DNA of 31,195 nucleotides from an uncultured Nitrospinota bacterium (GTDB lineage Bacteria > JAUXIQ01), in NCBI GenBank assembly GCA_964452105.1, contig CAYVLI010000001.1:6423-37617 (forward strand), written 5' to 3'. The position numbers and the translations under genes are program-made. Positions within the stretch are counted from its first letter, which is position 1. Each line of letters starts with the position of its first letter. Under the pieces are notes generated by a model that was not told the DNA's origin, did not search any database, and saw only the letters and a list, made by a program, of their open reading frames with translations. This document shows positions 17,111-30,777 of the stretch, piece after piece.

Positions 17111-18556
17111 ATGAATGGCAAGATGTCTGGAGAACGGATACTCATAGCGGACGATGAAGAGAGCATAAGGCTGGTTCTCAAGCGTGGCCTGGAGAAGAGG
17201 GGGCATGTGGTGGATACCGCCTGCGATGGCAAGGAAGCCCTGGCCAAAGGCCTGGAGCGGCCATACGCTCTCATATTTATGGATATAAAGATGCCGGGGA
17301 TGAGCGGCCTGGATGTCCTGGAAAAGATAAAGGAGAAACGGCCCCAGGCCCTGGTGATAGTCATAACCGCCCAGAGCTCCATGAGCAATGCCATCGGCGC
17401 CATGAAGAGAGGCGCCTTCGATTACATTGTAAAGCCCTTTGACATGGAGCAGATTTATCTGAAGGCTGAGAAGTCCCTTAAGGAAAAGGCCATGCAGAGG
17501 AGGCTGGCGTCATACATGGCCGATAAACCGGAGCGGCATGAGGACGAGATTATAGGCAAGAGCCCGGCCATGCAGGAGGTGTTCCTGAGCATAGGAAAAG
17601 TGGCCCGGAGCGACACCACCGTACTCATCCTCGGCGAAAGCGGAACGGGCAAGGAACTCGTGGCCCGCATCATACACAGAAACAGCCCCCGAGCCGAAAA
17701 CCCCTTCGTAGCGGTGAACTGTGCCGCCATACCCAGGGACCTCCTGGAGAGCGAGCTTTTCGGGCACGAGAAAGGAGCTTTCACAGGCGCGACCGCTCCC
17801 AGGATGGGCAAGTTCGAGATGGCAGACGGAGGAACCATATTCCTGGATGAGGTGGGTGATCTCGACCTTTCGATGCAGACCAAAGTGCTCAGAGTTCTCC
17901 AGGAGAGAGAGATAGACAGGGTGGGAGGCGGGTATCCCATAGGTGTGGACGTGAGGGTCATAGCCGCCACGGACCGGGATCTGGAAACGGCCATGAGGGA
18001 GAAAAAGTTTCGCGAGGGCCTCTACTACAGGTTGAACGTGGTACAGATCGAGTTGCCTCCTCTCAAGAAGAGGAAGGAGGACCTGCCGTTGTTGATAGAT
18101 TTCTTCCTCCACAAATTCCAGAAAGAATTGGGGATGGGTCCCAGGTATATAACAGCGGATGCTATGGACCTTCTGAGAGAGTACGACTGGCCGGGGAACG
18201 TTCGAGAGGTGGAGAACATGATCAAACGCTCCATAGTCCTCACTACGGGAGAGAGCATCACTTCCGAGCATTTTCCGTCTTTCCTCAGGGAGGGGCGCAA
18301 CCCCGGGGAGGGGGCGGCGTTTTCCATGGAAGGTCTTATGGAAGAAAAGCTGAGGGATATTGTCAGCAAGATGTGCCGTGCGGGACAAGGAGACCTCTAC
18401 AATATGGTCATGGAGTGTATGGAAAAGCCGCTCCTGGAGATGGTGCTGGCCGAATGCAAGGGGAATAAGCTCAAGGCGGCCAGGGTGCTGGGAATCAACA
18501 GGAACACCTTGCGAAAGAAGATGCAGACTCTGGGTATAGAGGTTAGAAAGGAATAG
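17111..18556 (+). CDS. ntrC: NtrC-type sigma54-dependent response regulator
   Basis: Receiver (ADDE, MDIKMP), AAA+ domain GESGTGKELVAR, ESELFGHEKGAFTGA, FLDEVGD, YDWPGNVRE, Fis-type HTH (GNKLKAARVLGINRNTLRKK). Confidence 0.92.
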   Translation: MNGKMSGERILIADDEESIRLVLKRGLEKRGHVVDTACDGKEALAKGLERPYALIFMDIKMPGMSGLDVLEKIKEKRPQALVIVITAQSSMSNAIGAMKRGAFDYIVKPFDMEQIYLKAEKSLKEKAMQRRLASYMADKPERHEDEIIGKSPAMQEVFLSIGKVARSDTTVLILGESGTGKELVARIIHRNSPRAENPFVAVNCAAIPRDLLESELFGHEKGAFTGATAPRMGKFEMADGGTIFLDEVGDLDLSMQTKVLRVLQEREIDRVGGGYPIGVDVRVIAATDRDLETAMREKKFREGLYYRLNVVQIELPPLKKRKEDLPLLIDFFLHKFQKELGMGPRYITADAMDLLREYDWPGNVREVENMIKRSIVLTTGESITSEHFPSFLREGRNPGEGAAFSMEGLMEEKLRDIVSKMCRAGQGDLYNMVMECMEKPLLEMVLAECKGNKLKAARVLGINRNTLRKKMQTLGIEVRKE

Positions 18557-18562
18557 CAGGCA

Positions 18563-20971
18563 GTGGTGAAGAAGCTTTGGAAAAAACTGGATGAGGGAGC
18601 GCTGCTTTTCGACGGCGCCATGGGAAGCATGCTTCAGCACCGCTTTCAACGGCCCGGGGTATGTCTTGAGGAGTTGAACCTTCTGGAGCCGGAAATGGTG
18701 CGAAGCGTCCATGTGGCTTATGTCGATGAGGGCGTTGATGTAATAGAGACGAATACGCTGGGTGCCAACGCAGTAAAACTGAGTGAACACGGCCTCGGCC
18801 ACAAGGTTGAGGAGATAAACAGGCAGGCTGTCAAACTGGCCAGGGAGGCGGCATCGGGCAGATGTCTGGTGGCTCTCTCGGTGGGCTCGACGGGGAAATT
18901 TCTCGAGCCTATCGGTTCCATGACCTTCGATGAAATGCGCGAGGTTTTCCGGGCGCAGATATCTGCCGCAGCACGGGAAGGGGTGGATTTGGTGGTGATC
19001 GAGACCATATCCGACCTGAAAGAGATGAGGGCCGCGGTGGTGGCGGCCAAAGAGGCGGTTTCGGTTCCCATTATGGCTACCATGACCTTCCAGGAAGACG
19101 GCCGCACCCTCCTGGGTACCAGCCCGGAAGCGGCTGCCGTATGCCTCGAATCCATGGGGGTGAGCATAATAGGCGCGAATTGCGGCACCGGGCCTGAAAC
19201 CATGGTTCAGGTTTTGAGGGAGCTCAAGCGCTCCACAGGAGCTAAGGTAGCGGCACAGCCCAATGCAGGCATGCCCAGGCTGGAGGCCGGCAGGACCGTT
19301 TTCCCCCTCACTCCTGAGGAGATGGCTGATTATTACGTCCGCTTAATCAAGGAGGGGGCGGATGTCATCGGCGGTTGCTGCGGTACGACGCCGCAGCACA
19401 TGAGGGCGATGATCAAAGCCGTGAGGGATATCAAGCCTGCTTCGGCTGCGCCTCGTCTGGAGAGTACGGTGTTATCGAGCCGCAGCAGGGTGGTGAGGAT
19501 AGGAAACGGTTGCTTTCCGGTTGTAATAGGAGAGAGGATAAACCCCACGGGGCGCAAGAAGCTCTCCGGGGAACTGATGGAGGGAAAGCTGGACGCCGTT
19601 TTGAAAGAAGCCAGGGAACAGGTTGAAGCCGGAGCGGACCTCCTCGATGTTAACGTAGGAGCGCCCGGGGCCGACGAGGTGGGCCTCATGAGGGGGGCTT
19701 CGCTGGCTGTACAGCGCCAGGTGGCTTCTCCTCTGGTGCTGGACTCTCCCGACCCGCAGGCTCTGGAGGCTGGACTCAAGGCGGCGGATGGCAAGGTTCT
19801 CATCAACTCCGTGAACGGTGAACGGGAGAAGATAGAGGCGATAGTCCCTCTTGCTGTGAAATACGGGGCGGCGGTAATAGGATTGACCCTGGACGAGAAG
19901 GGCATATCCGAACGGGCTGCAGAGCGGCTGAAGGTAGCCCGTACTATCCTCGATGCCTCGATGGAGCTGGGACTTTCCAAAATGGACTTGATAATCGACT
20001 GTCTTGCCCTCTCCGTCAGCACGGATCAGGAGTTAGCCCTGGAGACCCTCCGCGCTATCGAATCCATAAAGAAGGAGTTGGGGCTTCCCATTTCACTTGG
20101 AGTCAGTAACGTCTCCTTCGGCCTGCCGGCGAGGGGGCTGATCAATTCAGCCTTCCTGGCCATGGCCCTGGGCTGCGGCCTTGACTGCGCCATTATGAAC
20201 CCCAAGGATTCGCGGATGATGGAGACCTTACAGGCCTCGGCTGTGCTCATGGGGAGGGATAAGAAGGCGCTGAGGTTCATAGACTCATATGGCAGGAGCG
20301 CTCCCGAGGTAAGAGCCGAAAAAGTTGAAGAACCTGTCGGCCCGGCCCGAAAGCTGTTTCGAGCAATAGTGGAGGGTCATAAAGAGAACATCCTCTCTCT
20401 TATGGAGGGGGTGTTTGAAGAGGGTGTTCCCCCCATGGAGCTGAGTGATGCCATACTCATCCCGGCGCTGGAAGAGGTGGGCCGGAAGTTTGAGAGCAAG
20501 GACTTTTTCCTACCGCAGGTAATGTTGTCCGCCGAAGCTGCCAAGATAGCTTTCGTCCGCATCAGGGAAGTATTAAAGGGGCATGAGACTGTATCCAGGG
20601 GGAAAGTCATAATGGCCACTGTAATGGGGGACATTCACGATATCGGCAAAAATATCGTCTCCATGCTTCTGGAAAATCATGGTTTTGAGGTGTTGAACCT
20701 GGGGATAAACGTCCCGGCGGAAAAAATTGCTGAGGCGGCGGTAGATAACAGTGTGGATGCCATCGGCTTGAGCGCCCTGATGACCACTACCATGCTGGAA
20801 ATGGGTAAAACGGTGAAGTATCTCAAGCAGAGGGAGATAAACTGCCCTATAATAGTGGGCGGGGCCGCGGTGACGCCTGAGTTCGCTGCCGAGATAGGGG
20901 CGGATGCCTATGGCAGGGACGCAGTGGATGCGGTGAACATAGCGAAGAAACTCATCCCTGAGAGGAAATGA
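18563..20971 (+). CDS. metH: Cobalamin-dependent methionine synthase, three-module form (Hcy-binding, pterin-binding, cap/B12-binding) without the C-terminal reactivation domain
   Basis: DGAMGSML, Zn ligands GANCG and GGCCG, IGERINPTG, LGVSNVSFG, B12 motif GDIHDIGKN, SALMTTT. The 802-aa protein ends right after the B12 domain. Confidence 0.9.
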   Translation: MVKKLWKKLDEGALLFDGAMGSMLQHRFQRPGVCLEELNLLEPEMVRSVHVAYVDEGVDVIETNTLGANAVKLSEHGLGHKVEEINRQAVKLAREAASGRCLVALSVGSTGKFLEPIGSMTFDEMREVFRAQISAAAREGVDLVVIETISDLKEMRAAVVAAKEAVSVPIMATMTFQEDGRTLLGTSPEAAAVCLESMGVSIIGANCGTGPETMVQVLRELKRSTGAKVAAQPNAGMPRLEAGRTVFPLTPEEMADYYVRLIKEGADVIGGCCGTTPQHMRAMIKAVRDIKPASAAPRLESTVLSSRSRVVRIGNGCFPVVIGERINPTGRKKLSGELMEGKLDAVLKEAREQVEAGADLLDVNVGAPGADEVGLMRGASLAVQRQVASPLVLDSPDPQALEAGLKAADGKVLINSVNGEREKIEAIVPLAVKYGAAVIGLTLDEKGISERAAERLKVARTILDASMELGLSKMDLIIDCLALSVSTDQELALETLRAIESIKKELGLPISLGVSNVSFGLPARGLINSAFLAMALGCGLDCAIMNPKDSRMMETLQASAVLMGRDKKALRFIDSYGRSAPEVRAEKVEEPVGPARKLFRAIVEGHKENILSLMEGVFEEGVPPMELSDAILIPALEEVGRKFESKDFFLPQVMLSAEAAKIAFVRIREVLKGHETVSRGKVIMATVMGDIHDIGKNIVSMLLENHGFEVLNLGINVPAEKIAEAAVDNSVDAIGLSALMTTTMLEMGKTVKYLKQREINCPIIVGGAAVTPEFAAEIGADAYGRDAVDAVNIAKKLIPERK

Positions 20972-22014
20972 TAGAACAAGTATCGAGTATCATGGATACG
21001 CTGGCTGCTGCAGTGATCCTGGCCGCCGGGAAGGGGGTCAGGATGGTTTCCGAGAGGGCCAAGGTGCTTCACCCCCTGTGCGGAGAGCCGATGTTGGGCC
21101 ATGTTCTTCGGGCGGTGGCCGAATGCGGCCCGGAGAGGACGCTGGTGGTGGTAGGCCATCAGGCTGAAGAAGTAAAGGCGGCTTTCGCCGATGAGAAAGT
21201 GGAATTCGTCCTGCAGGAAGAGCAGCGAGGCACCGGCCACGCTCTGATGCAAACCGAGAAATACCTGGGAGGTTGCGGCGGGGAAATCCTGGTGGTTCCC
21301 GGCGATACTCCTCTTCTTAAAGCGCAGACGCTTCTTACTCTTCTGAAAACGCACAGGGAAACCGGAGCAACGGTCTCCTTGCTGACGGCTCGATTGCCGG
21401 ACGCTGCGGGCTACGGCAGGGTTATTCGAGAGAGGGACGGCTCGGTGGCGAGGATAGTGGAGGACAGGGATGCGACTGTCGAAGAAGCCGCAGTCAACGA
21501 AATCAATGTAGGCGCATACTGTTTCGCAGCGTCCTTTCCCTTCGAGGCCCTGCTGAAGGTAAGGGATGATAACGCGCAAGGGGAGTTGTATCTCACGGAT
21601 GTGGTGGAGGTGGCGGTAGGTAATAGAGAAAAGGTAGCGGCGCTCGAGGCGGATGCTGATGAAGTGATGGGTGTGAACAGCAGGGTGGAGTTGGCGAGGG
21701 CGGAAAAGATAATGCGGAGCGAAATAAACCGATGCTGGATGCTTCGCGGTGTCACGATGGTGAATCCGGCTGCCACTTATGTCGATAGCGGCGCGAAAAT
21801 CGGGGTGGATTCCGTCATGCACCCCGGCTGCCATATACTGGGAGAATCAGTCATCGGTGAGCGGTGCACGGTCATGCCTGGAGCCATAGTAATAGACAGT
21901 CGGATCGGTCGGGAAGCCCGCCTGGGGCCGTATTGTATTCTGGAGCGCATCTCTGTCCCTGATGGGGGTGAGGTAGCGCCGTTTGAGATTAAGAGAGGAA
22001 CCGACCGGCCATAA
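20968..22014 (+). CDS. glmU: GlmU, C-terminally truncated (uridyltransferase domain, linker and first LbH coils only)
   Basis: ILAAGKGVRM...AKVLH, QRGTGHA, GDTPLL, GYGRVIR, IVEDRD, EINVG, NAQGELYLTD, GVNSR. Ends at VAPFEIKRGTDRP* (equivalent to GPFARLRP) after 348 aa. ATGA overlap with metH. Confidence 0.9.
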   Translation: MIEQVSSIMDTLAAAVILAAGKGVRMVSERAKVLHPLCGEPMLGHVLRAVAECGPERTLVVVGHQAEEVKAAFADEKVEFVLQEEQRGTGHALMQTEKYLGGCGGEILVVPGDTPLLKAQTLLTLLKTHRETGATVSLLTARLPDAAGYGRVIRERDGSVARIVEDRDATVEEAAVNEINVGAYCFAASFPFEALLKVRDDNAQGELYLTDVVEVAVGNREKVAALEADADEVMGVNSRVELARAEKIMRSEINRCWMLRGVTMVNPAATYVDSGAKIGVDSVMHPGCHILGESVIGERCTVMPGAIVIDSRIGREARLGPYCILERISVPDGGEVAPFEIKRGTDRP

Positions 22015-22044
22015 TCCAGCTTCTCTAACAAGGGTGGGGGAAAA

Positions 22045-23247
22045 ATGAAAGCTGTCATTCTAACGGGTGGAAGAGCCACAAAGCTGGAGCCTTTCACTGC
22101 CACCAGACCTGCGGTGATGATTAACATCAGCGGCAGGTATCTTCTCGAGAATATCATATCTTTGCTTAGAGCGGCGGGGATCGTGGATATCGTGCTTGTG
22201 GTGGGTTATAAGCGGGAAAAGATAATTGATTACTTTAAAGGCGGTGGCGATCAGGGCGTTAACATAACCTATGCCGTCCAGGATGAGCCGGCGGGCATAG
22301 GTGATGCAGTCCTGAAGGCCAGGGATAAAGTTCTGCGTGGTGAATACTTCATGCTGGTGTATGGGGATACGCTCACCTGCTCTAATATATACAACGGCGC
22401 CATCAATTCTTTCAACTCCTTCAAGCTTCCCATAGCGTCCGTCTGTCTCACTCCCGCCACCCAGCGGTACGGCAACATATTTATGGATGGGGAGATGAAC
22501 ATCCACCGAATAATAGAGAAACCGCATGGGGAAGAGCTGGGGAATTATGTCCTGGCCGGAGCGTTCATTCTGCCCAGCGATTTTTTTAATCTGCTGCAAG
22601 AGAGCAATTGCGTCATGGAGGAAGCGCTGGATGCGGTTATCGGTGAGCAGGGGTTGAAAGCTTCCATCTGGGAAGAGGACTGGGTGGATATAGGACATCC
22701 CTGGGACATCCTGCGAGGCAACAAAATGATAATGGATTCCTGGGAGTATGCCTCTATTTCCAAGGAGGCCCGGCTCATGGGGGACGTGAGCATACAGGGC
22801 CCAGTGGTCATAGCGAACGATGTCACCATAGAGAAGGGTACACTGTTAAAGGGCCCCTGCTACGTTGGGCCGGGCTCGTTCGTGGGGCATAACGCCCTGG
22901 TCAGGGAGTACACTTCCATCGGGGCCAATTCGGTGGTGGGATTCGGGGTGGAGCTTAAAAATTGCGTGCTTTTCGGCGGGTCCAAGATTGGCCGGCTTTC
23001 TTTCGTTGGCGACAGCGTAATAGGCCAGGGTGTGTATATCGGTTCTGGAACCATGACCATCAACGGCTATCTGGACGGCGGCACCGTACGGGTTAAAAGC
23101 AATGGAATGGAAATGGACACCGGCTTGCACAAAATCGGGTCGTTTGTCGGCGATAATGTCATGGTTGGATCGGGCAACACTCTTGCTGCCGGATGTATTA
23201 TACCTTCCGGGGAACGGATTCCTCATCATTTTACATTCCCGAAATAA
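22045..23247 (+). CDS. Archaeal-type bifunctional GlmU-like nucleotidyltransferase/LbH protein with degenerate active sites (candidate pseudoenzyme)
   Basis: Full architecture (VYGD, YG, IIEKP, WVDIGHPWDIL, GPVVI..GPCYVG, ELKNC, VGDSVIG, DTG..KIGSFVGD), but GGRATKL..RPA replaces G.GTR...PK and RLSFVGDS replaces HLSYVGDS. Confidence 0.85.
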   Translation: MKAVILTGGRATKLEPFTATRPAVMINISGRYLLENIISLLRAAGIVDIVLVVGYKREKIIDYFKGGGDQGVNITYAVQDEPAGIGDAVLKARDKVLRGEYFMLVYGDTLTCSNIYNGAINSFNSFKLPIASVCLTPATQRYGNIFMDGEMNIHRIIEKPHGEELGNYVLAGAFILPSDFFNLLQESNCVMEEALDAVIGEQGLKASIWEEDWVDIGHPWDILRGNKMIMDSWEYASISKEARLMGDVSIQGPVVIANDVTIEKGTLLKGPCYVGPGSFVGHNALVREYTSIGANSVVGFGVELKNCVLFGGSKIGRLSFVGDSVIGQGVYIGSGTMTINGYLDGGTVRVKSNGMEMDTGLHKIGSFVGDNVMVGSGNTLAAGCIIPSGERIPHHFTFPK

Positions 23248-23261
23248 GGAGAGATTTTAAA

Positions 23262-25079
23262 TTGTGCGGAATTATCGGTATCGCCGGCTTTAATAATGTT
23301 GCTCATCAATTAGTCAGCAGCTTGAAAAACCTGGAATACAGGGGCTACGATTCCTGCGGGGTCGCCCTGGTCGATGATATGGCCATAGATGTGCGAAAGA
23401 ACATAGGAACCATCGAGGAGGTGGAGATAAAGGAGAAACTTTCCGAACCCAGGGGCAAAGTGGGCATAGGCCACACGCGCTGGGCGACCCACGGTATGGT
23501 GGCCGTGGAAAACGCTCATCCTCATACCAGCGCCAAGAAGGATTTCGCCGTGGTGCATAACGGCATAATCTCCAACTATACCGAGTTGAAGGAAGGGTTG
23601 GAAGGGGAGGGGTACAGGTTAGTTTCACAGACTGATACGGAGGTCATCGCCCACCTCATGGAGAAGAACTACTCGTTGACCAATGACCTGGAGGAAGCCT
23701 TCATTCAAACTCTACATTGCATTGAAGGAACTTACGCCATGGCGATGGTTTCCATATACGATCCCGACAGGGTATTCTGTGCCAAGATGGAGAGCCCTCT
23801 CATACTTGGCATAGGCCGGAGAGCCAACTATGTGGGCTCCGATTTCAACGCTTTCATAGAATATACCAAGAAGGCCATGGTGATGGAGGATGGGGAATAC
23901 GCCATACTGACCAGGGACAGTTATACGGTAAAGGATATTTTCACCAGGGATATAAAAGAGAAGTCCATCATGGAGATAGAGTGGGATATGGAGATGTCCC
24001 AGAAGGGTGGATATCCTCATTACATGCTCAAGGAGATACACGAGCAGCCACATACGGTGGTCAACGCACTGAACATATACGAGGAGGAGATCGAACGCCT
24101 GGCCCGGTCCATTGCCGAGAGCGGGCAGACTTATCTAATAGGCGCCGGGACCACTTATTATGTTTCCATGATAGCGCAGTACTATTTCTCCGATATCGCG
24201 GGAAGATTTATCCCCGCAATATGTTCTGATGAGTTCAACAACCTGGCTGCGGTGGGTGGTGATTCGATGGTGGTGGCGGTATCACAATCGGGGGAGACCT
24301 ATGACACCCTGAGCGCATTGAGATTCGCACAGGGGCGGGGGGCGAGAACTGCGGCCGTCGTGAACGTTATGGGGTCTTCCATGGCCCGGATGGTGGACCA
24401 CGCCATCATGCAGGGGTCGGGACCCGAGATATGTGTGTTGAGCACCAAGGCTGCTCTGGCTCAGATAGTCGTGCTATTGAGGACAGCTATAACGTTGGCC
24501 CGGATGGAGGGGACCATTTCGAAAAGCGAAGAGGATTCGTTGAGAAAAGACATCTCAGACCTCCCCCCGTTGCTGCAGAAAATACTCAACGAAAAATCGG
24601 GTCTGATAAACAACCTGGCTCGTAAAAACAGCGGCCAGAAAAACTGGATTTTTCTGGGGAGAGGCATCTATTACCCCATAGCTCTTGAAGCCGCGCTGAA
24701 GTACAAAGAAGCTGCATACCTTCACGCGGAGGGGATGCCGGGCGGGTTCCTGAAGCATGGGACACTGGCGCTTATAGACGAGGAGCTTTATACATTAATT
24801 TTCGTGCCGCCGAGAGGGGACTCGAATTACAACCTTAACATGGGCAGCGTTGAGCAAGTGAAAGCCCGGGGCGGGCGCATGATGGCTTTCCATTTCAATC
24901 GCATTAAGCAGCATAAGGAGTTGTTCGATGAAGCGTTGCTCCTGCCGCCCGCGCCTGAACTCACGGCCCCGCTGACTCAACTGGTGGCGGCGCAGCTCTT
25001 TGCCTATTTCACCGCCCTGGCTCTTAAGCGGAACGTGGATAAACCCAGATCTCTGGCCAAATCCGTCACCGTGGCTTGA
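23262..25079 (+). CDS. glmS: Glutamine--fructose-6-phosphate aminotransferase (isomerizing)
   Basis: TTG-TGC-GGA (fMet-Cys-Gly) at 23262 after AGGAG. GIGHTRWATHG, HNGII, TDTE, SQSGET, ALEAALKYKE, LKHG, LAKSVTV. The track start at 23193 would bury the catalytic Cys. Confidence 0.95.
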   Translation: MCGIIGIAGFNNVAHQLVSSLKNLEYRGYDSCGVALVDDMAIDVRKNIGTIEEVEIKEKLSEPRGKVGIGHTRWATHGMVAVENAHPHTSAKKDFAVVHNGIISNYTELKEGLEGEGYRLVSQTDTEVIAHLMEKNYSLTNDLEEAFIQTLHCIEGTYAMAMVSIYDPDRVFCAKMESPLILGIGRRANYVGSDFNAFIEYTKKAMVMEDGEYAILTRDSYTVKDIFTRDIKEKSIMEIEWDMEMSQKGGYPHYMLKEIHEQPHTVVNALNIYEEEIERLARSIAESGQTYLIGAGTTYYVSMIAQYYFSDIAGRFIPAICSDEFNNLAAVGGDSMVVAVSQSGETYDTLSALRFAQGRGARTAAVVNVMGSSMARMVDHAIMQGSGPEICVLSTKAALAQIVVLLRTAITLARMEGTISKSEEDSLRKDISDLPPLLQKILNEKSGLINNLARKNSGQKNWIFLGRGIYYPIALEAALKYKEAAYLHAEGMPGGFLKHGTLALIDEELYTLIFVPPRGDSNYNLNMGSVEQVKARGGRMMAFHFNRIKQHKELFDEALLLPPAPELTAPLTQLVAAQLFAYFTALALKRNVDKPRSLAKSVTVA

Positions 25080-25195: not shown

Positions 25196-27214
25196 ATGAG
25201 TTCTTTTGTGAGACTACAAGGGACCGATGGAGTCAGAGGCATTGTCCTGCCGTCCCACCATGAGAGTATCAGGACGCTCTCTCCGCAGGAAGCGTTCCTG
25301 GAGCGAGGTGTAATCACGGAGCAGTTCGTGGAGCTCTACTGCTACTGTGTGGTACGGTGCATGATGGACTGGGGCGAGATGGGGCCGGGCCGGGAAGTTA
25401 TCGTCGGATGGGACCCCCGGGACGAGCGAGGGGAATTGACAGGTGCGGCGTTAAGAGGGGCAGCCAGGGCAGGGGCCAGTGTGCTGGCCGCAGGGGTGCT
25501 TCCCACGCCTGCCGTACCTCTCTTCATGCTTCACAGGGATGCAAGCTTGAGCCTGGTGATAACGGCTTCGCACAATCCTGCGGACCAGAACGGTATAAAA
25601 ATCTTCCTGCCTTACCTGGCCTTGAAACCTTTGCCGGCAGAGGATGACTTGATAAGCGAGGCTGTCTTTAAGACCGATTACGCTGCGATAGAGAAGCTTG
25701 ACAGTTCCGAAGCGGAAGACGTTTCGGCGCCGGCCGAGGCTCTGTTCAAGGATTTTTGTTGTCAGGAAAGAAACTCCTGGTTGAAAGATGCGGACGCCCT
25801 GAGGGCTCTGACCTTAATAGTTGACCCCGCCAACGGCTCATATACTGATATAGCGCGTGAAGTTTTCGAACGATTGGGAGTAGGAGAGGTGATAGAAGTC
25901 AATCCTTCGCGGGAGGGGTCTGTGAACCGCGGCTCCGGGGTTACCCAACTGGAGGGGAACAGATACATCGGTTCGGACCTGGTTGGAAGCGGAGGGAGGG
26001 ATTACAGCGGGAACAGGACGGTAGCGGCCCTTTTTGAAAACGGAAGACGCAAGAGGCGTGAGATGCCGGTCGGGAAAGCCCTGGTCAGCGCGGCGGTGTT
26101 CGACGCCGACGGGGACCGATTCTATCGGGTTGACTATTTGCCCGATGATGACAGGGCGGTAGTCCTCACCGGAGATGAGATTGCCTACCTCCAGGCGGAA
26201 TACCTCATGCAGAATCATCATGAAGGGGATGAAAGCGGTCTATTCGTCACTACGGTGGAGAGTGACATAAACGTTCTGTCATCCGTGGGCGGCCTGGATC
26301 TGGAAACGGCGCAGACCGGTGTGGGGGATAAGTGGATTCTGAAGGAGATAGCGGAGCGGCGTCTGCCGGCGGGGTCCGGTGCAGAGCGGCGTGATCCCAG
26401 GTCTGCCCTGAGTTTAACGGGGCCGTTTAAGGGAAGGAACGCAAGAGATGAGGGACGTGCTTTATATATGGGGTGCGAGGAATCGGGCCATAATATAACA
26501 GGAGGGTGGCTTGAAGATAAAAAGGGTGAGGCGCAGCGGGTGTTCATTGGGAACGGCCTGAAGAGTGCGGTGAACTCTTACGTTGCCACGATGTCGGTGT
26601 GGTCGCGGTTATCCCGCAGGGAATATTTTGAGCACATCAACGAACCCTTTAGCCGGGGTTTTAAGAAAACCTATTATGTGTACCACACGGACAGGAAAAA
26701 ACTGAAAAGGGGAAGCCCCGTATGGAACGGTCTGCAATCGGTGTTGATGAAGCAGGTCAGCAGCGTTCTGGGGGGCAGATGCAGGGTCCACAAGCGCAGG
26801 TTTGTCGAGGATGAAGATATGCTTTACCTCCAGGCGCACCGGGAGGGGCATCCTGCAGCGGCGGTTTTCGCCAGGAACTCCGGCACCGAAGACAAGACGG
26901 GCATTAATTTAAGAGGAGGGATGGAAGACGAGGAGCCTCTGTCGGATATAGGTTTTGAGGGCGCCGCCTACCTGGCCGGCGAGATGAAGAGCGACGCCAC
27001 GCCGATGGGCAGAGCGTCTCTGCAGATAATGGAAATGATGTTCAGAGAGGGAGCATCGCGAGAGGATGAGCTGAGGAGCAGGTTCAGGGAACTGGACGTG
27101 GAAAGGCTCATTGATGAGATGCTGAACAAAGAGAAGCTTCTTTGCAGGAGAAGAGAAGGTGTTTTGGAATTATCGACCCTGGGCGGTGAGATTTGCAGGT
27201 CGAGATTCTCATAA
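25196..27214 (+). CDS. glmM: Enlarged alpha-D-phosphohexomutase, probable phosphoglucosamine mutase, with insertions and a C-terminal extension
   Basis: GTDGVRG, GVLPTPAV, phospho-Ser motif TASHNP..QNGIK, metal loop DADGDR, GEESGH-like CEESGH, RNSGTE. 672 aa. Context between glmS and an acetyltransferase. Confidence 0.75.
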   Translation: MSSFVRLQGTDGVRGIVLPSHHESIRTLSPQEAFLERGVITEQFVELYCYCVVRCMMDWGEMGPGREVIVGWDPRDERGELTGAALRGAARAGASVLAAGVLPTPAVPLFMLHRDASLSLVITASHNPADQNGIKIFLPYLALKPLPAEDDLISEAVFKTDYAAIEKLDSSEAEDVSAPAEALFKDFCCQERNSWLKDADALRALTLIVDPANGSYTDIAREVFERLGVGEVIEVNPSREGSVNRGSGVTQLEGNRYIGSDLVGSGGRDYSGNRTVAALFENGRRKRREMPVGKALVSAAVFDADGDRFYRVDYLPDDDRAVVLTGDEIAYLQAEYLMQNHHEGDESGLFVTTVESDINVLSSVGGLDLETAQTGVGDKWILKEIAERRLPAGSGAERRDPRSALSLTGPFKGRNARDEGRALYMGCEESGHNITGGWLEDKKGEAQRVFIGNGLKSAVNSYVATMSVWSRLSRREYFEHINEPFSRGFKKTYYVYHTDRKKLKRGSPVWNGLQSVLMKQVSSVLGGRCRVHKRRFVEDEDMLYLQAHREGHPAAAVFARNSGTEDKTGINLRGGMEDEEPLSDIGFEGAAYLAGEMKSDATPMGRASLQIMEMMFREGASREDELRSRFRELDVERLIDEMLNKEKLLCRRREGVLELSTLGGEICRSRFS

Positions 27215-27244
27215 GTGAATCTTTTAACAGCTTTGGAGCCTGAT

Positions 27245-28090
27245 ATGAACGAATCACAGAGCGGAGAGCAGTTTCGCCCTGAATTTTTTTTCCAGGGCCT
27301 GGCTGGTTTCAGATATGCGTCTCTATTCCAGGGGCTGACAAATGTCTGGGAGGCGGTGGCCAACCTTCATGGATACATAATGAATGCGCTTTCGAGTGAT
27401 GTGGCTTCTTCCAGCCGCGCCCTCTTCGAGCTGGATGGGGCGAGGCTGATTCCGCTTCTGGAGAAAACCCCGGAGGAACGAGACGGCATTCTTTCGTCCC
27501 AGGGCTACATGGTCCTGGAAGAGGACGTGTACCTCGAAGGGATAAGCATAGCAATCGGAAGAGGAACGATAATAGAGCCGGGGGTGGTTATCAAGTCCCC
27601 TACCATCATAGGCAGAGGGGCGGAACTGCGCCAGGGCGCATATATCAGGGGCAGAGTGATAATAGGGGATGAAGCGGTGGTGGGCCACGCCACCGAGGTA
27701 AAAAATTCCTTGTTCCTGGATCATGCCGAGGCCGGCCATTTCGCCTACGTCGGCGACAGCATCCTGGGGCGTCATGTGAACCTGGGAGCGGGAACCAAGC
27801 TGGCCAACCTGGAGCTGCGCGGCCCGCAGGACAAGGAGTCGGGCATTATTAAGCCCATCGTTATTACAGTAAACGGACGGCAGTACGATACGGGACTGGA
27901 GAAGCTTGGCGCAGTGCTGGGAGACGACGTGGAAACGGGATGTAATTCGGTGACGTCTCCAGGCGTTCTGGTGGGCCCCGGTTCCTGGATATACGCAAAC
28001 ACGACGGTCAAGAAGGGGTTCTACGGGAGCGATGTGATCATAAGAAACAGGAACGGCAGACTGAATTCCTCGCCCAGGCGCATGACCTGA
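27245..28090 (+). CDS. Stand-alone LbH acetyltransferase, probable glucosamine-1-phosphate N-acetyltransferase
   Basis: Hexapeptide repeats, GAYIRG, EVKNS, HFAYVGDSILG..VNLGAGTKLAN, DTGLEKLGAVLGD. No nucleotidyltransferase domain. ATG 27245 follows GGAG; GTG 27215 is an alternative start. Confidence 0.8.
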   Translation: MNESQSGEQFRPEFFFQGLAGFRYASLFQGLTNVWEAVANLHGYIMNALSSDVASSSRALFELDGARLIPLLEKTPEERDGILSSQGYMVLEEDVYLEGISIAIGRGTIIEPGVVIKSPTIIGRGAELRQGAYIRGRVIIGDEAVVGHATEVKNSLFLDHAEAGHFAYVGDSILGRHVNLGAGTKLANLELRGPQDKESGIIKPIVITVNGRQYDTGLEKLGAVLGDDVETGCNSVTSPGVLVGPGSWIYANTTVKKGFYGSDVIIRNRNGRLNSSPRRMT

Positions 28091-28100
28091 TCTCCCTATC

Positions 28101-30293
28101 GTGATGAAAATAGAGAAGAAGATAGATATCGACGGCAGCCTCAACGATATGCAGAAGGAGGCTGTAAGATATACGGAAGGGCCTCTGCTGGTGCTGGCTG
28201 GAGCCGGTTCCGGCAAGACCAGGGTCATTGTCCATCGCATCGCCCATCTGGTAGGAGCGCTGGGCGTGGCTCCTTATAACATACTGGCTATAACCTTCAC
28301 CAATAAAGCCGCCAATGAGCTTAAAGAGAGGACCGCTGCTTTTTTGGGGCCGGGTGCGGGGAAATTGTGGCTGGGCACCTTCCATTCGCTGTGCAGCAGG
28401 ATACTCCGTGAAAATCCGTGGAAGCGTGAAGAGCTCAAGGGGTTTGTTATTTACGACGGGGGCGACAGCGCCTCTGTCGTCAAAAAATGCCTGAAGGAGC
28501 TCAATATCAGTTCCGAGCGATTCCCTCCTGCGGAGGTTAAGCGCAGGATCGAGCGCCTCAAGGACAGGTTGATAACGCCGGGGAAATTCGCCGGGGGAGA
28601 GGGCCTGGATTTTTTCGATGAAAAGGTGGCCCTGGTATATCCCATGTATCAGAGTAGGCTCAGAGAGGCCAGGGCGTTGGACTTCGGCGATCTGCTCATG
28701 GTAACGGTGCAATTGCTGGAGTCGGACGGGGATATCCTTAAAAGGTATCAGAAAAAATTTAAATATGTAATGGTAGATGAATACCAGGATACCAATTACG
28801 CGCAGTTCAGACTGATACAACTTCTTGGCGGCGAACACCGCAGCGTGTGCGTCGTAGGGGACGATGATCAGAGCATCTACGGGTGGCGGGGGGCGAACCT
28901 GGAGAATATCCTGCGCTTCGAAGAACATTTTCCGGGTGCGCGTGTGGTGAAGCTTGAGGAAAACTACCGCTCCACGGGGACAATCCTGAGCGTGGCCTCA
29001 TCCGTTATCAGCAAGAATGTGGGGCGTAAAGAGAAGACCCTCTGGACCAGGAGAGGTGGAGGGGACCCCATAACCTATTACATCGCAGAAGACGAGGGAG
29101 CGGAAGCGGATTACATAAGGAGGACCATTCAGCAGCTGGTTTCCAGAGGATACAGCTACCGGGATGTTGCTATACTCTATCGCACTAATGCCCAATCGAG
29201 GGTCATCGAGGAGGGCTTTCGAGCCGCAGGTGTGCCTTATCAGGTGGTCGGTGACATACAGTTCTACCAGCGCAGGGAGATAAAAGACCTTATCGCTTAT
29301 CTCAAGGTCGTGGCCAATATTTACGATTCGGTGAGCTTGAGCCGCATTATAAAAGTCCCTCCCCGGGGAATCGGAGATAAGACTCTGGATGCGGTGGAGT
29401 ATATCTGCCGGGAGGATGGCCTGCCGCTTTACAGCGGTATGGAAAAAGCCATGGAGCGAGGTCTTCTGGGGAAGGGTCGGGGAAACAGGCTCGGAGATTT
29501 TATGCTCCTGCTGAAGGGGCTGCTGGATGAGGCCGGAAGCCTGGATCCCGCAGCAGTGCTCTCCAGGATCGTCGAGACCACGGGCTACCTGGACTACCTG
29601 AGAAAGAACGATGCCATCACTGCAGCCGTGCGCACGGAGAATGTGAAGGAGTTCATGTCCTCCGCCCGACAATTCGTGGAAACGCAGCCCCAACCTACGC
29701 TACAAAATTTCCTCGACCGCCTTTCCCTTATATCCGAGCAGGACTCCTATGACCAGAGCCTGGGGGCGGTCTCGCTCATGACGCTGCACTCATCGAAAGG
29801 CCTGGAGTTCCGCGCGGTCTTCATAGCGGGCATGGAAGACGGTCTCTGCCCTCATGCAAGATCAAGCGAAGATATGGAACGGCTCGAAGAGGAACGCCGT
29901 CTCTGCTACGTGGGGATGACGCGGGCGAAAGAGAGACTGTACCTGGTCCGAGCTCGGTCCAGGACATTGCACGGCGTATCCGTCCACAATCAACCGTCGC
30001 CTTTTCTGTTTGACATACCCGAAGAGCATGTGCGGGTTATGGGCGATACTGTTCTTCGCCAGCGAAAAAGCGGATGCGGTGAAACCTCATCCGTACGCGG
30101 AAGGGCGGCGATGGCGGCGGAAGCTGGTGGAGGCCCTTTCAAGAAAGGTGCGGTGGTGATACACCCTAAATTCGGAGTGGGAGCAGTTTCCGGACGGGAA
30201 GGCGAAGGAGAAGGCCTTAAGCTGATAATCAACTTCAAGAAGTTCGGCCGCAAGAAATTGATGGTGAAATATGCGGGCCTCAAAGAAGTTTAG
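28101..30293 (+). CDS. pcrA: ATP-dependent DNA helicase PcrA/UvrD
   Basis: LAGAGSGKT, TFTNKAA, DEYQD, VGDDDQSIYGWRGA, LEENYRS, YRTNAQSR, TLHSSKGLEF, EEERRLCYVGMTRA, C-terminal Tudor-like HPKFG.G domain. Confidence 0.96.
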   Translation: MMKIEKKIDIDGSLNDMQKEAVRYTEGPLLVLAGAGSGKTRVIVHRIAHLVGALGVAPYNILAITFTNKAANELKERTAAFLGPGAGKLWLGTFHSLCSRILRENPWKREELKGFVIYDGGDSASVVKKCLKELNISSERFPPAEVKRRIERLKDRLITPGKFAGGEGLDFFDEKVALVYPMYQSRLREARALDFGDLLMVTVQLLESDGDILKRYQKKFKYVMVDEYQDTNYAQFRLIQLLGGEHRSVCVVGDDDQSIYGWRGANLENILRFEEHFPGARVVKLEENYRSTGTILSVASSVISKNVGRKEKTLWTRRGGGDPITYYIAEDEGAEADYIRRTIQQLVSRGYSYRDVAILYRTNAQSRVIEEGFRAAGVPYQVVGDIQFYQRREIKDLIAYLKVVANIYDSVSLSRIIKVPPRGIGDKTLDAVEYICREDGLPLYSGMEKAMERGLLGKGRGNRLGDFMLLLKGLLDEAGSLDPAAVLSRIVETTGYLDYLRKNDAITAAVRTENVKEFMSSARQFVETQPQPTLQNFLDRLSLISEQDSYDQSLGAVSLMTLHSSKGLEFRAVFIAGMEDGLCPHARSSEDMERLEEERRLCYVGMTRAKERLYLVRARSRTLHGVSVHNQPSPFLFDIPEEHVRVMGDTVLRQRKSGCGETSSVRGRAAMAAEAGGGPFKKGAVVIHPKFGVGAVSGREGEGEGLKLIINFKKFGRKKLMVKYAGLKEV

Positions 30294-30295
30294 GA

Positions 30296-30405
30296 GAGCT
30301 TTGTTTGTTTGATGCATAAAGGGTTTTAAATAAAATTGCTCGAAACTCGCCTGCGGCCCGACAGCGGGAAATTTTCTCGGCGGGGAAGCGAGCTTTGTTT
30401 AGTTT
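30296..30405. repeat. 11-bp direct repeats flanking a GC-rich imperfect palindrome (REP/MITE-like)
   Basis: GAGCTTTGTTT at 30296-30306 and 30390-30400. Between them GCTCG (30338-30342) pairs with CGAGC (30389-30393) and CTCGCC (30346-30351) with GGCGGG (30379-30384). Confidence 0.4.
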
Positions 30406-30489
30406 ATGGTTTATTATAAATGATGTATTTAGTATATTCGCCTGAAGGTTCTATCATGGATGCGTTTTTATCTTTTGAAGGATACATTA

Positions 30490-30777
30490 ATGAAAATAAC
30501 CGTTAAAGAAGTGGAATACGTAGCCAGACTGGCTTACCTGGAACTGGAAGAGGAGGAGAAGGAAAAATTTACCAGTCAGTTGAACGGCATCCTCGAATAT
30601 GTGGATAAGCTTAACGAACTGGACACCAGCAATGTGGAGCCCACATCGCACGTTCTGCCTATAGTGAATGTTTTCAAAGAAGATCAGGTGAAAGATTCCC
30701 ATCCCATAGAAGAGATGCTCGGGAACGCTCCTGAGCGGGAGGGGAATTTCGTGAAGGTGCCTCGGGTGGTTGAATGA
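30490..30777 (+). CDS. gatC: Asp-tRNA(Asn)/Glu-tRNA(Gln) amidotransferase subunit C
   Basis: MKITVKEVEYVARLAYLEL...QLNGILEYVDKLNELDT..VEPT.H...NAPE..GNFVKVPRVVE. ATG 30490 follows AAGGA. Confidence 0.96.
   Translation: MKITVKEVEYVARLAYLELEEEEKEKFTSQLNGILEYVDKLNELDTSNVEPTSHVLPIVNVFKEDQVKDSHPIEEMLGNAPEREGNFVKVPRVVE

Follow-up and report, generated by a model that had tools for sequence, protein, structure and literature searches.

A GlmU-like protein lacking the catalytic residues of both of its domains is conserved next to glmS in Nitrospinota

Why would a bacterium keep, immediately in front of glmS, a full-length gene for a two-domain GlmU-like protein in which the catalytic residues of both domains are absent? 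The question is raised by the open reading frame (ORF) at 22045-23247 in a stretch of 31,195 nucleotides (nt) from an uncultured Nitrospinota bacterium (GCA_964452105.1, contig CAYVLI010000001.1), here called the window. We label the protein of this ORF X and give equivalent residues in the numbering of Escherichia coli GlmU or of ST0452 from Sulfolobus tokodaii. A reading made from the letters alone, hereafter the sequence-only reading, had proposed a double pseudoenzyme that may regulate its neighbours. In our analysis the best explanation, with a probability of roughly 0.55, is that X is a non-catalytic paralogue of archaeal-type bifunctional GlmU and the fifth conserved component of a split pathway to UDP-N-acetylglucosamine (UDP-GlcNAc), acting as a ligand-binding regulatory or scaffold subunit. 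The gene and its flanks are as follows.

22032-22040, + strand: Shine-Dalgarno-like GGGTGGGGG, purine-rich, 4 nt 5' of the ATG of X (sequence reading).
22045-23247, + strand: X, a 400-amino-acid (aa) archaeal-GlmU-like protein in which the catalytic residues of both domains are absent (ORF, Pfam, TIGR03992, ST0452 alignment, AlphaFold2, Foldseek).
23248-23261, + strand: spacer of 14 nt between X and glmS, with GGAGAG at 23248-53 (sequence reading).

The gene ends with TAA at 23245-47, and sequence reading confirmed that X is full length, preceded by a Shine-Dalgarno-like sequence and 14 nt from glmS. The nucleotidyltransferase loop reads GGRATKL and then TRPAVM, with an Arg at position 10 and a Lys at position 13. 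In alignments of X to ST0452 (2ggo) and E. coli GlmU, Gly11 is replaced by Ala (GCC at 22075), Arg13 (E. coli R18) by Lys (AAG at 22081) and Lys23 (E. coli K25) by Ala (GCG at 22111). This loop Arg and Lys are known to be important for catalysis from the literature on E. coli GlmU and RmlA. In the acetyltransferase domain, H308 (H363) is replaced by Arg317 (CGG at 22993), Y311 (Y366) by Phe320 (TTC at 23002) and N322 (N377) by Tyr331, the first residue of YIGSGT (nt 23035). The GELELTD segment of ST0452 is also replaced. All residues named in the sequence-only reading (A11, K13, A23, R317, F320 and the Tyr in place of the Asn of NxGAG) match the sequence and the alignments, and its statement that the sugar-binding segment had given way to SNCVMEEA, which starts at aa 187 (nt 22603), was confirmed as well.

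The fold of X can be placed through several comparisons. Pfam matches NTP_transferase at aa 2-229 and Hexapep repeats, giving a nucleotidyltransferase-like domain at about aa 1-228 and a left-handed beta-helix at about aa 229-400, and the AlphaFold2 model (mean predicted local distance difference test score 79.6, predicted template-modelling score 0.81) has ST0452 as its top Foldseek matches (TM 0.74-0.81), with GMPPA (7d72_A/B) and KJC2 (8yre_A) also among the matches. ST0452 is likewise the closest PDB sequence (E 7e-54, aligned over 1-390). Of the NCBIfam models, TIGR03992 (Arch_glmU) fits X best: X 1-392 aligns to model positions 1-387 of 393 with 289.9 bits (E 2.7e-86), marginally below the cutoff of 292.1 bits. 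Pfam, AlphaFold2 and Foldseek all find in X the architecture of that family, a Rossmann-like domain followed by an ST0452-type left-handed beta-helix; its loop signature (G-x-G-x-R-L and the Lys of R-P-K) and its acetyltransferase site (His308, Tyr311, Asn322) are both missing. The bacterial GlmU model TIGR01173 matches in two partial stretches with 99.1 bits, below its cutoff of 366.85. Some orthologues of X carry NCBI names as Arch_glmU members, and that of Nitrospina gracilis is named a bifunctional enzyme. By fold and descent X belongs with Arch_glmU, but as both catalytic sites are clearly missing, it should not carry the label of a bifunctional enzyme.

The losses are not peculiar to this genome. 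A homologue search of 5.8 billion proteins gave 2135 matches, and among the best 120 of these (48-84% identity; from Nitrospinota, Tectomicrobia and metagenome bins) GRLSF[VI]GDS is present in every one that spans the site, the loop Arg is missing in almost all, with R-L or R-I there in three, and the Lys of RPK is retained in some and gone in many. An index-free HMMER search of 1.84 billion cluster representatives gave the same picture at greater distance: the nearest ~30, down to ~33% identity, all lack the acetyltransferase His and have GRLSF, GRISY, DRLSY, YRLCY or NRLCY in its place, His-less relatives extend to ~31% identity, and the canonical archaeal type (GxGTRL, RPKP, GTGHA, ELELTD, HLSYVGDS, NxGAGT) predominates only past ~E 1e-57. 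When one genome per GTDB species was scanned, 328 genomes proved to encode a relative; the best 80 of them are nearly all Nitrospinota or Tectomicrobia. Because the substitutions are fixed across the family rather than scattered, the pattern reflects more than chance.

The gene is also constrained. Nonsynonymous divergence (dN), computed against the two closest loci (L006 and L009; 80-84% identity), is 0.10-0.11 for X, 0.10-0.12 for GlmS, 0.18-0.19 for the methionine synthase MetH and 0.25 for the neighbouring truncated GlmU, so that X stands on par with GlmS and at less than half the value of truncated GlmU. The ratio of dN to synonymous divergence (dS) for X is ~0.06-0.08, an approximate figure because dS is saturated (1.4-1.9); the ratio for NtrC was dropped as a codon-alignment artefact. 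Purifying selection on X therefore matches in strength that on glmS. X thus shares with the non-catalytic paralogues GMPPA, KJC, GlgD and eIF2B gamma, a functional class that spans several sequence families, a kept fold, lost catalytic residues and purifying selection, and it coexists with intact counterparts in its own cluster (truncated GlmU and a protein consisting of a beta-helix only, described below).

These results bear directly on the sequence-only reading, which had named orthologue alignment and dN/dS as its check: the acetyltransferase substitutions proved to be fixed, and X proved to be under purifying selection. That reading had also counted orthologues with canonical residues as evidence against itself; none were seen for the acetyltransferase site, and the loop Arg13 is lost across Nitrospinota, but a few deep-branching relatives (L085, P0123 and P0127) do keep the nucleotidyltransferase Arg and Lys, so that the loss in the N-domain came later and depends on the lineage. 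With the residues of both sites missing, the losses fixed, the gene selected and intact enzymes in the same cluster, the double-pseudoenzyme reading is well supported.

What remains of the two pockets was examined position by position in 85 distinct members of the X family, with E. coli GlmU equivalents assigned by alignment and uridine-binding positions assigned after the contacts of Mycobacterium tuberculosis GlmU (PMC9105790).

Uridine-binding L11, G14, Q76, G81, D105 and G140 (E. coli): X L6, G9, Q79, G84, D108 and G143, at least 96% conserved.
E154 and Y103 (E. coli): X E158 and Y106, invariant.
X K159, P160, W213 and D215: invariant or nearly so (D215 99%).
Catalytic R18 (E. coli): X position 13, variable, with N in 44% and otherwise H, K, G or D.
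Catalytic K25 (E. coli): X position 23, variable, with K in 39% and otherwise I, N, Q, L, A or T.
GlcNAc contact T82 (E. coli): X I85, 100%.
GlcNAc contact N169 (E. coli): X L170, 99%.
GE.E.TD segment: replaced, X M191-E192.
Sugar-phosphate R333, E349, K351, N386 and K392 (E. coli): X R287, E303, K305, N340 and K363, 95-100%.
H363 (E. coli): X R317, fixed (in this set partly by construction).
Y366 (E. coli): X F320, 99%.
N377 (E. coli): X position 331, D 76%, Y in the window protein.

The family has invariant residues of its own at I85, L170, M191, R317 and F320, and no alternative conserved His was found among its members in the beta-helix. Both pockets are therefore kept and remodelled rather than drifting, which argues for binding without the canonical chemistry.

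Both GlmU reactions are covered by other genes in the cluster of X.

17111-18556, + strand: sigma-54-dependent response regulator with receiver, AAA+ and HTH_8 domains (Pfam).
18563-20971, + strand: MetH-type methionine synthase, 802 aa, with Hcy-binding, pterin-binding and B12-binding domains (Pfam).
20968-22014, + strand: bacterial GlmU in naturally truncated form, 348 aa, for which the match to the NCBIfam GlmU models is confined to ~2-328 of 452 (with E. coli GlmU alignment).
23262-25079, + strand: glmS, glutamine--fructose-6-phosphate transaminase, with a TTG start, an N-terminal Cys and the product LCGIIG...
25196-27214, + strand: long phosphoglucosamine-mutase-like protein, 672 aa, with PGM_PMM_I/II/III (Pfam).
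27215-28090, + strand: left-handed beta-helix protein without a second domain of GlmU type, 291 aa if it starts at the GTG at 27215 and 281 aa if at the ATG at 27245, abutting the mutase gene.

The truncated GlmU, the start of which overlaps the metH stop (ATGA), has canonical uridyltransferase residues throughout (LAAGKGVRM, AKVLH, QRGTGHA, PGD, VED, NVGAY, GELYLTD, GVNSR) and retains ~100 aa of beta-helix without the acetyltransferase site. Its orthologues adjoining X, which consist essentially of the GlmU N-domain (GlmU-N), are 235-348 aa long, outside the clade of the window only ~250 aa with no beta-helix at all, and GxGxR[ML]..K is present in 63/64. Stand-alone GlmU N-domains of ~250 aa are widespread, and the homologue search also placed them in Zixibacteria, Calditrichaeota, Chlorobiaceae and Smithellaceae.

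For the second reaction, the stand-alone beta-helix protein at 27215-28090, which the sequence-only reading does not mention, has a complete site canonical for a glucosamine-1-phosphate (GlcN-1-P) acetyltransferase (R..TEVKNS..GHFAYVGDS..NLGAGT..ANLELR, aligned to ST0452 and E. coli GlmU). Among NCBIfam models it fits Arch_glmU best, over the C-terminal half of that model (positions 238-393, 150 bits), and GH.xY[VI]GDS is kept by 116/120 members of its family. Judged by these motifs, it is probably the real acetyltransferase of the pathway. The nature of its N-terminal region of ~100 aa was unassigned by sequence, and public names of its relatives include 'hypothetical protein', 'glucose-1-phosphate thymidylyltransferase' and 'DapH/DapD/GlmU-related'. 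A recent duplication as the origin of X and this protein is not supported, since the C-domain of X has 40% identity to ST0452 versus 32% to the beta-helix-only protein.

GlmS exceeds the cutoffs of both PRK00331 (651.7 bits) and TIGR01135 (628 bits). The long mutase has its active-site motifs intact in translation (TASHNP, DADGDR, EESGH, SGTEDK), is ~200 aa longer than GlmM and falls under every NCBIfam cutoff (TIGR01455 glmM, 108.7 versus 447); in related genomes it is always coupled with the beta-helix acetyltransferase gene. Neither a glmS ribozyme nor any other known RNA was found in front of glmS: the 14-nt spacer has no space for a ribozyme or a promoter, and Rfam gave 0 matches in the window.

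The arrangement recurs. In many genomes and metagenome contigs the order is regulator, GlmU-N, X, glmS, long mutase, beta-helix acetyltransferase, (uvrD), gatC, and a metagenome scan with an alignment of the beta-helix-only protein recovered the full cluster many times together with distant stand-alone copies. Directly 3' of X, glmS is present in 76/78 species-level loci with a median gap of 13 nt; directly 5' of X, a GlmU N-domain gene is present in 57/74 loci and absent in the other 17. The two loci in which no glmS was detected 3' of X are L019 and L021, on contigs labelled Nitrospirae.

At the cluster head, most related genomes have a full or an HTH_8-only homologue of the sigma-54 response regulator, which makes it a possible candidate for a dedicated transcriptional regulator of the UDP-GlcNAc operon. 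Many relatives have only a short HTH_8 protein of 88-214 aa there (for example L001 8961-9227 and L004 6324-6941). The metH gene is inserted between regulator and glmU in the clade of the window (also in L009 and L035), and an S-adenosylmethionine (AdoMet)-reactivation domain is absent among the Pfam matches of its product. At the other end, the UDP-GlcNAc genes are followed by uvrD/pcrA, gatC, ubiD and ubiA (28101-30777 in the window; L089-L093), and even distant members of the phylum share this order, an unusually stable synteny for functionally unrelated genes.

The distribution of the losses gives some indication of their order. Deep-branching bacterial relatives (P0123, P0127 and L085) have the nucleotidyltransferase Arg and Lys and already lack the acetyltransferase His, and P0123 lies 3 nt 5' of glmS with no GlmU-N nearby. 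The nearest non-bacterial relatives, from Asgard archaea (Heimdall-, Hod- and Thorarchaeota), share the His-less signature, with GRLSFxGDS in Hod- and Thorarchaeota and YRLCY or NRLCY in Heimdallarchaeota (P0133, P0139, P0148, P0175). The Heimdallarchaeum copy (L095 8001-9230) stands immediately after pgi-glmS. On these motifs the loss of the acetyltransferase His is taken to be ancient and common to the Asgard relatives. K23, in turn, is retained in 16/17 X genes without an adjoining GlmU-N versus 17/68 with one, and the clade of the window is among the most degenerate (A11, K13, A23). The simplest history would have two steps, in which an ancient Arch_glmU subfamily first lost acetyltransfer and the nucleotidyltransferase loop was lost later, in Nitrospinota with a bacterial GlmU N-domain gene. 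Apparently the chemistry of the N-domain was abandoned once GlmU-N had taken it over, with X still retained, and because X is kept at GlmS-like constraint despite both losses, a function other than either reaction is indicated. Intermediate forms of X are seen at L085 6111-7301 and L094 7001-8212, where the GRGSRL..RPK loop is canonical, the acetyltransferase motif is dead and no GlmU-N adjoins.

Such a function can be outlined from the pathway. GlmS would make glucosamine-6-phosphate, the long GlmM-like mutase would convert it to GlcN-1-P, the stand-alone beta-helix protein would acetylate GlcN-1-P, and the truncated bacterial GlmU would uridylylate the acetylated product. X, with its two-domain fold and its uridine-binding and sugar-phosphate-binding residues kept and its chemistry residues lost, would most likely trimerise via the beta-helix and bind a pathway metabolite that it does not turn over. 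Candidates are a uridine nucleotide or nucleotide-sugar for the N-domain and a hexosamine phosphate for the pocket of the beta-helix. The occupancy of X would then serve to control its partners or to bring them together, the candidates here being GlmS and/or the GlmU and acetyltransferase fragments of domain size. We infer ligand binding by X, the identity of its partners and the direction of regulation. The earlier suggestion that X regulates GlmS or the truncated GlmU via UDP-GlcNAc or GlcN(Ac)-1-P is plausible on the residues and gene order described here.

Several points weigh against this explanation. That X is catalytically inactive is itself something we infer from its residues; some left-handed beta-helix N-acyltransferases function without a catalytic His, and E303 could in principle act as a catalytic base in X. 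The 80 genome loci were chosen by the GRLSF pattern, which makes the invariance of R317 in the 85-member set partly one of construction, and it is the best 120 homologues and the HMMER search that provide unbiased support for its fixation. N. gracilis and most Nitrospinaceae loci lack the mutase/beta-helix acetyltransferase pair within 10 kb of X. Archaeal glmU genes usually adjoin glmS, and the Asgard relative of X does so too; the adjacency may simply be inherited and is weak evidence for physical coupling. Finally, the GlcNAc pocket is partly remodelled (T to I, N to L, GELELTD lost), and the ligand therefore need not be UDP-GlcNAc.

Different accounts of X can be set against this evidence. 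A more specific form of the regulatory role makes X a sensor of hexosamine flux, in which the dead nucleotidyltransferase pocket would hold UDP-GlcNAc or a uridine nucleotide related to it, the dead acetyltransferase pocket would hold a hexosamine phosphate, and X would, through direct contact, throttle GlmS and/or assemble the split GlmU; we regard this as a tentative possibility. Alternatively, X could be a structural scaffold only, a trimeric beta-helix that replaces the oligomerisation platform lost by GlmU-N, and perhaps that of the acetyltransferase, with no ligand sensing. The canonical GlmU trimer is indeed held together by its beta-helix (PMC11947611), and the GlmU-N that adjoins X upstream in most loci is mostly ~250 aa without one. 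A pure scaffold would have no need of the buried uridine- and sugar-phosphate-binding residues that X keeps invariant, however, and X is kept beside glmS in the 17 loci where no GlmU-N adjoins. N-terminal fragments of E. coli GlmU are, moreover, active alone. This account is unlikely.

X could also still be the N-acetyltransferase of the pathway, for GlcN-1-P or another amino-sugar, with Arg317 and Glu303 replacing the His/Glu pair and the beta-helix-only protein serving another substrate. In its favour, no part of X is as well conserved as the acetyltransferase pocket (R287, E303, K305, S319, D323, S324, N340 and K363 at 95-100%), most Nitrospinaceae loci have no beta-helix-only gene in the vicinity of X, and NCBI names the N. 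gracilis orthologue bifunctional. The key catalytic residues of the GlmU acetyltransferase are E348 and H362 (PMC11947611), however, and in X the general-base His is Arg in every member with no other conserved His in the domain, while a complete canonical site, kept in 116/120 relatives, is present in a protein of the same cluster whose gene abuts that of the mutase. We consider continued acetyltransfer by X improbable.

Retention of nucleotidyltransferase activity, weak or with another sugar-1-phosphate or nucleoside triphosphate, despite K13 and A23, would be in keeping with the 96-100% conservation of G9, Q79, G84, Y106, D108, E158, K159 and D215, with the Lys13 and Arg10 of the window protein and with the canonical Arg and Lys of L085, P0123 and P0127. 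The loop Arg is missing in essentially all Nitrospinota orthologues, however, and the residue at position 13 varies widely (N, H, K, G, D), as a catalytic residue should not; K23 is lost chiefly where a canonical GlmU-N adjoins, and other residues stand in place of the T, the N and the GELELTD segment that bind the sugar, all of which leaves this activity with little likelihood. That X is a decaying, strain-specific gene on its way to a pseudogene has nothing but the missing catalytic residues to recommend it, and is refuted by the intact frame, the dN/dS of ~0.06-0.08, a dN equal to that of GlmS, the same substitutions in the best 120 homologues and the relatives in 328 genomes.

A non-catalytic X that regulates or scaffolds the pathway would matter in several respects. 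UDP-GlcNAc is a cell-wall precursor whose synthesis the bacterial envelope cannot do without, and two enzymes of the pathway, GlmU and GlmS, are targets for antibiotics; here a whole phylum, including the main marine nitrite oxidisers, would have GlmU split into separate enzymes together with a conserved, apparently dead paralogue. The annotation 'bifunctional nucleotidylyltransferase/acetyltransferase' for X is probably wrong in hundreds of genomes, and the likely real acetyltransferase is annotated 'hypothetical' or as a thymidylyltransferase. X would be a clean bacterial case of a bifunctional enzyme becoming a pseudoenzyme in two steps, and the His-less signature shared with Asgard archaea offers a lead on the origin of the eukaryotic regulatory subunits of this fold. 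If X does sense hexosamine flux, it would be a third independent solution to GlmS feedback, besides the glmS ribozyme/GlmYZ systems and GlmR, and regulatory subunits of nucleotidyltransferase plus beta-helix type (the class of GMPPA and eIF2B gamma/epsilon) would already exist in prokaryotes.

The literature search yielded no publication describing X and nothing relevant on GlmU with Nitrospina or with pseudoenzyme, and neither glmU nor glmS is mentioned in the N. gracilis genome paper and its supplement. A look-up of the exact X sequence gave no record. The window sequence is present in microbial-mat and hydrothermal-vent metagenome runs; in the single RNA run of the same sample, none of the sampled window words was present.

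Among known systems, bacterial bifunctional GlmU has the same domain order as X, which matches its models weakly and has a short linker and beta-helix of archaeal type, and the truncated, uridyltransferase-only GlmU at 20968-22014 is a naturally occurring parallel to GlmU-Tr331, an engineered fragment of the E. coli enzyme. GMPPA of animals and KONJAC (KJC) of plants are inactive paralogues beside an active enzyme, with the same nucleotidyltransferase and beta-helix fold as X. KONJAC controls VTC1. These proteins are eukaryotic and belong to the GDP-mannose pathway, whereas X is bacterial and lies in a split-GlmU operon of the UDP-GlcNAc pathway; their beta-helix was never an acetyltransferase, making them 'single' pseudoenzymes, whereas in X two sites that were once active appear dead. 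For GMPPA, binding of GDP-mannose and regulation of GMPPB are known (PMC11228364); its sequence similarity to X, like that of KJC, is distant (E 7e-9), and for X a complex and ligand binding are proposed by analogy. GlmR (YvcK) of Bacillus subtilis, which senses UDP-GlcNAc and controls GlmS (PMC7525490), sets a precedent for the UDP-GlcNAc-dependent control of GlmS at the protein level that is proposed for X, by analogy of function only, as its fold and family are unrelated and its gene is not beside glmS. The nearest system is Arch_glmU itself, in ST0452 and MJ1101, which has its length, two-domain architecture and many binding-site residues in common with X; the R13, K23, H308, Y311, N322 and GELELTD of those enzymes are absent in X, which instead has its own invariant I85, L170, M191, R317 and F320.

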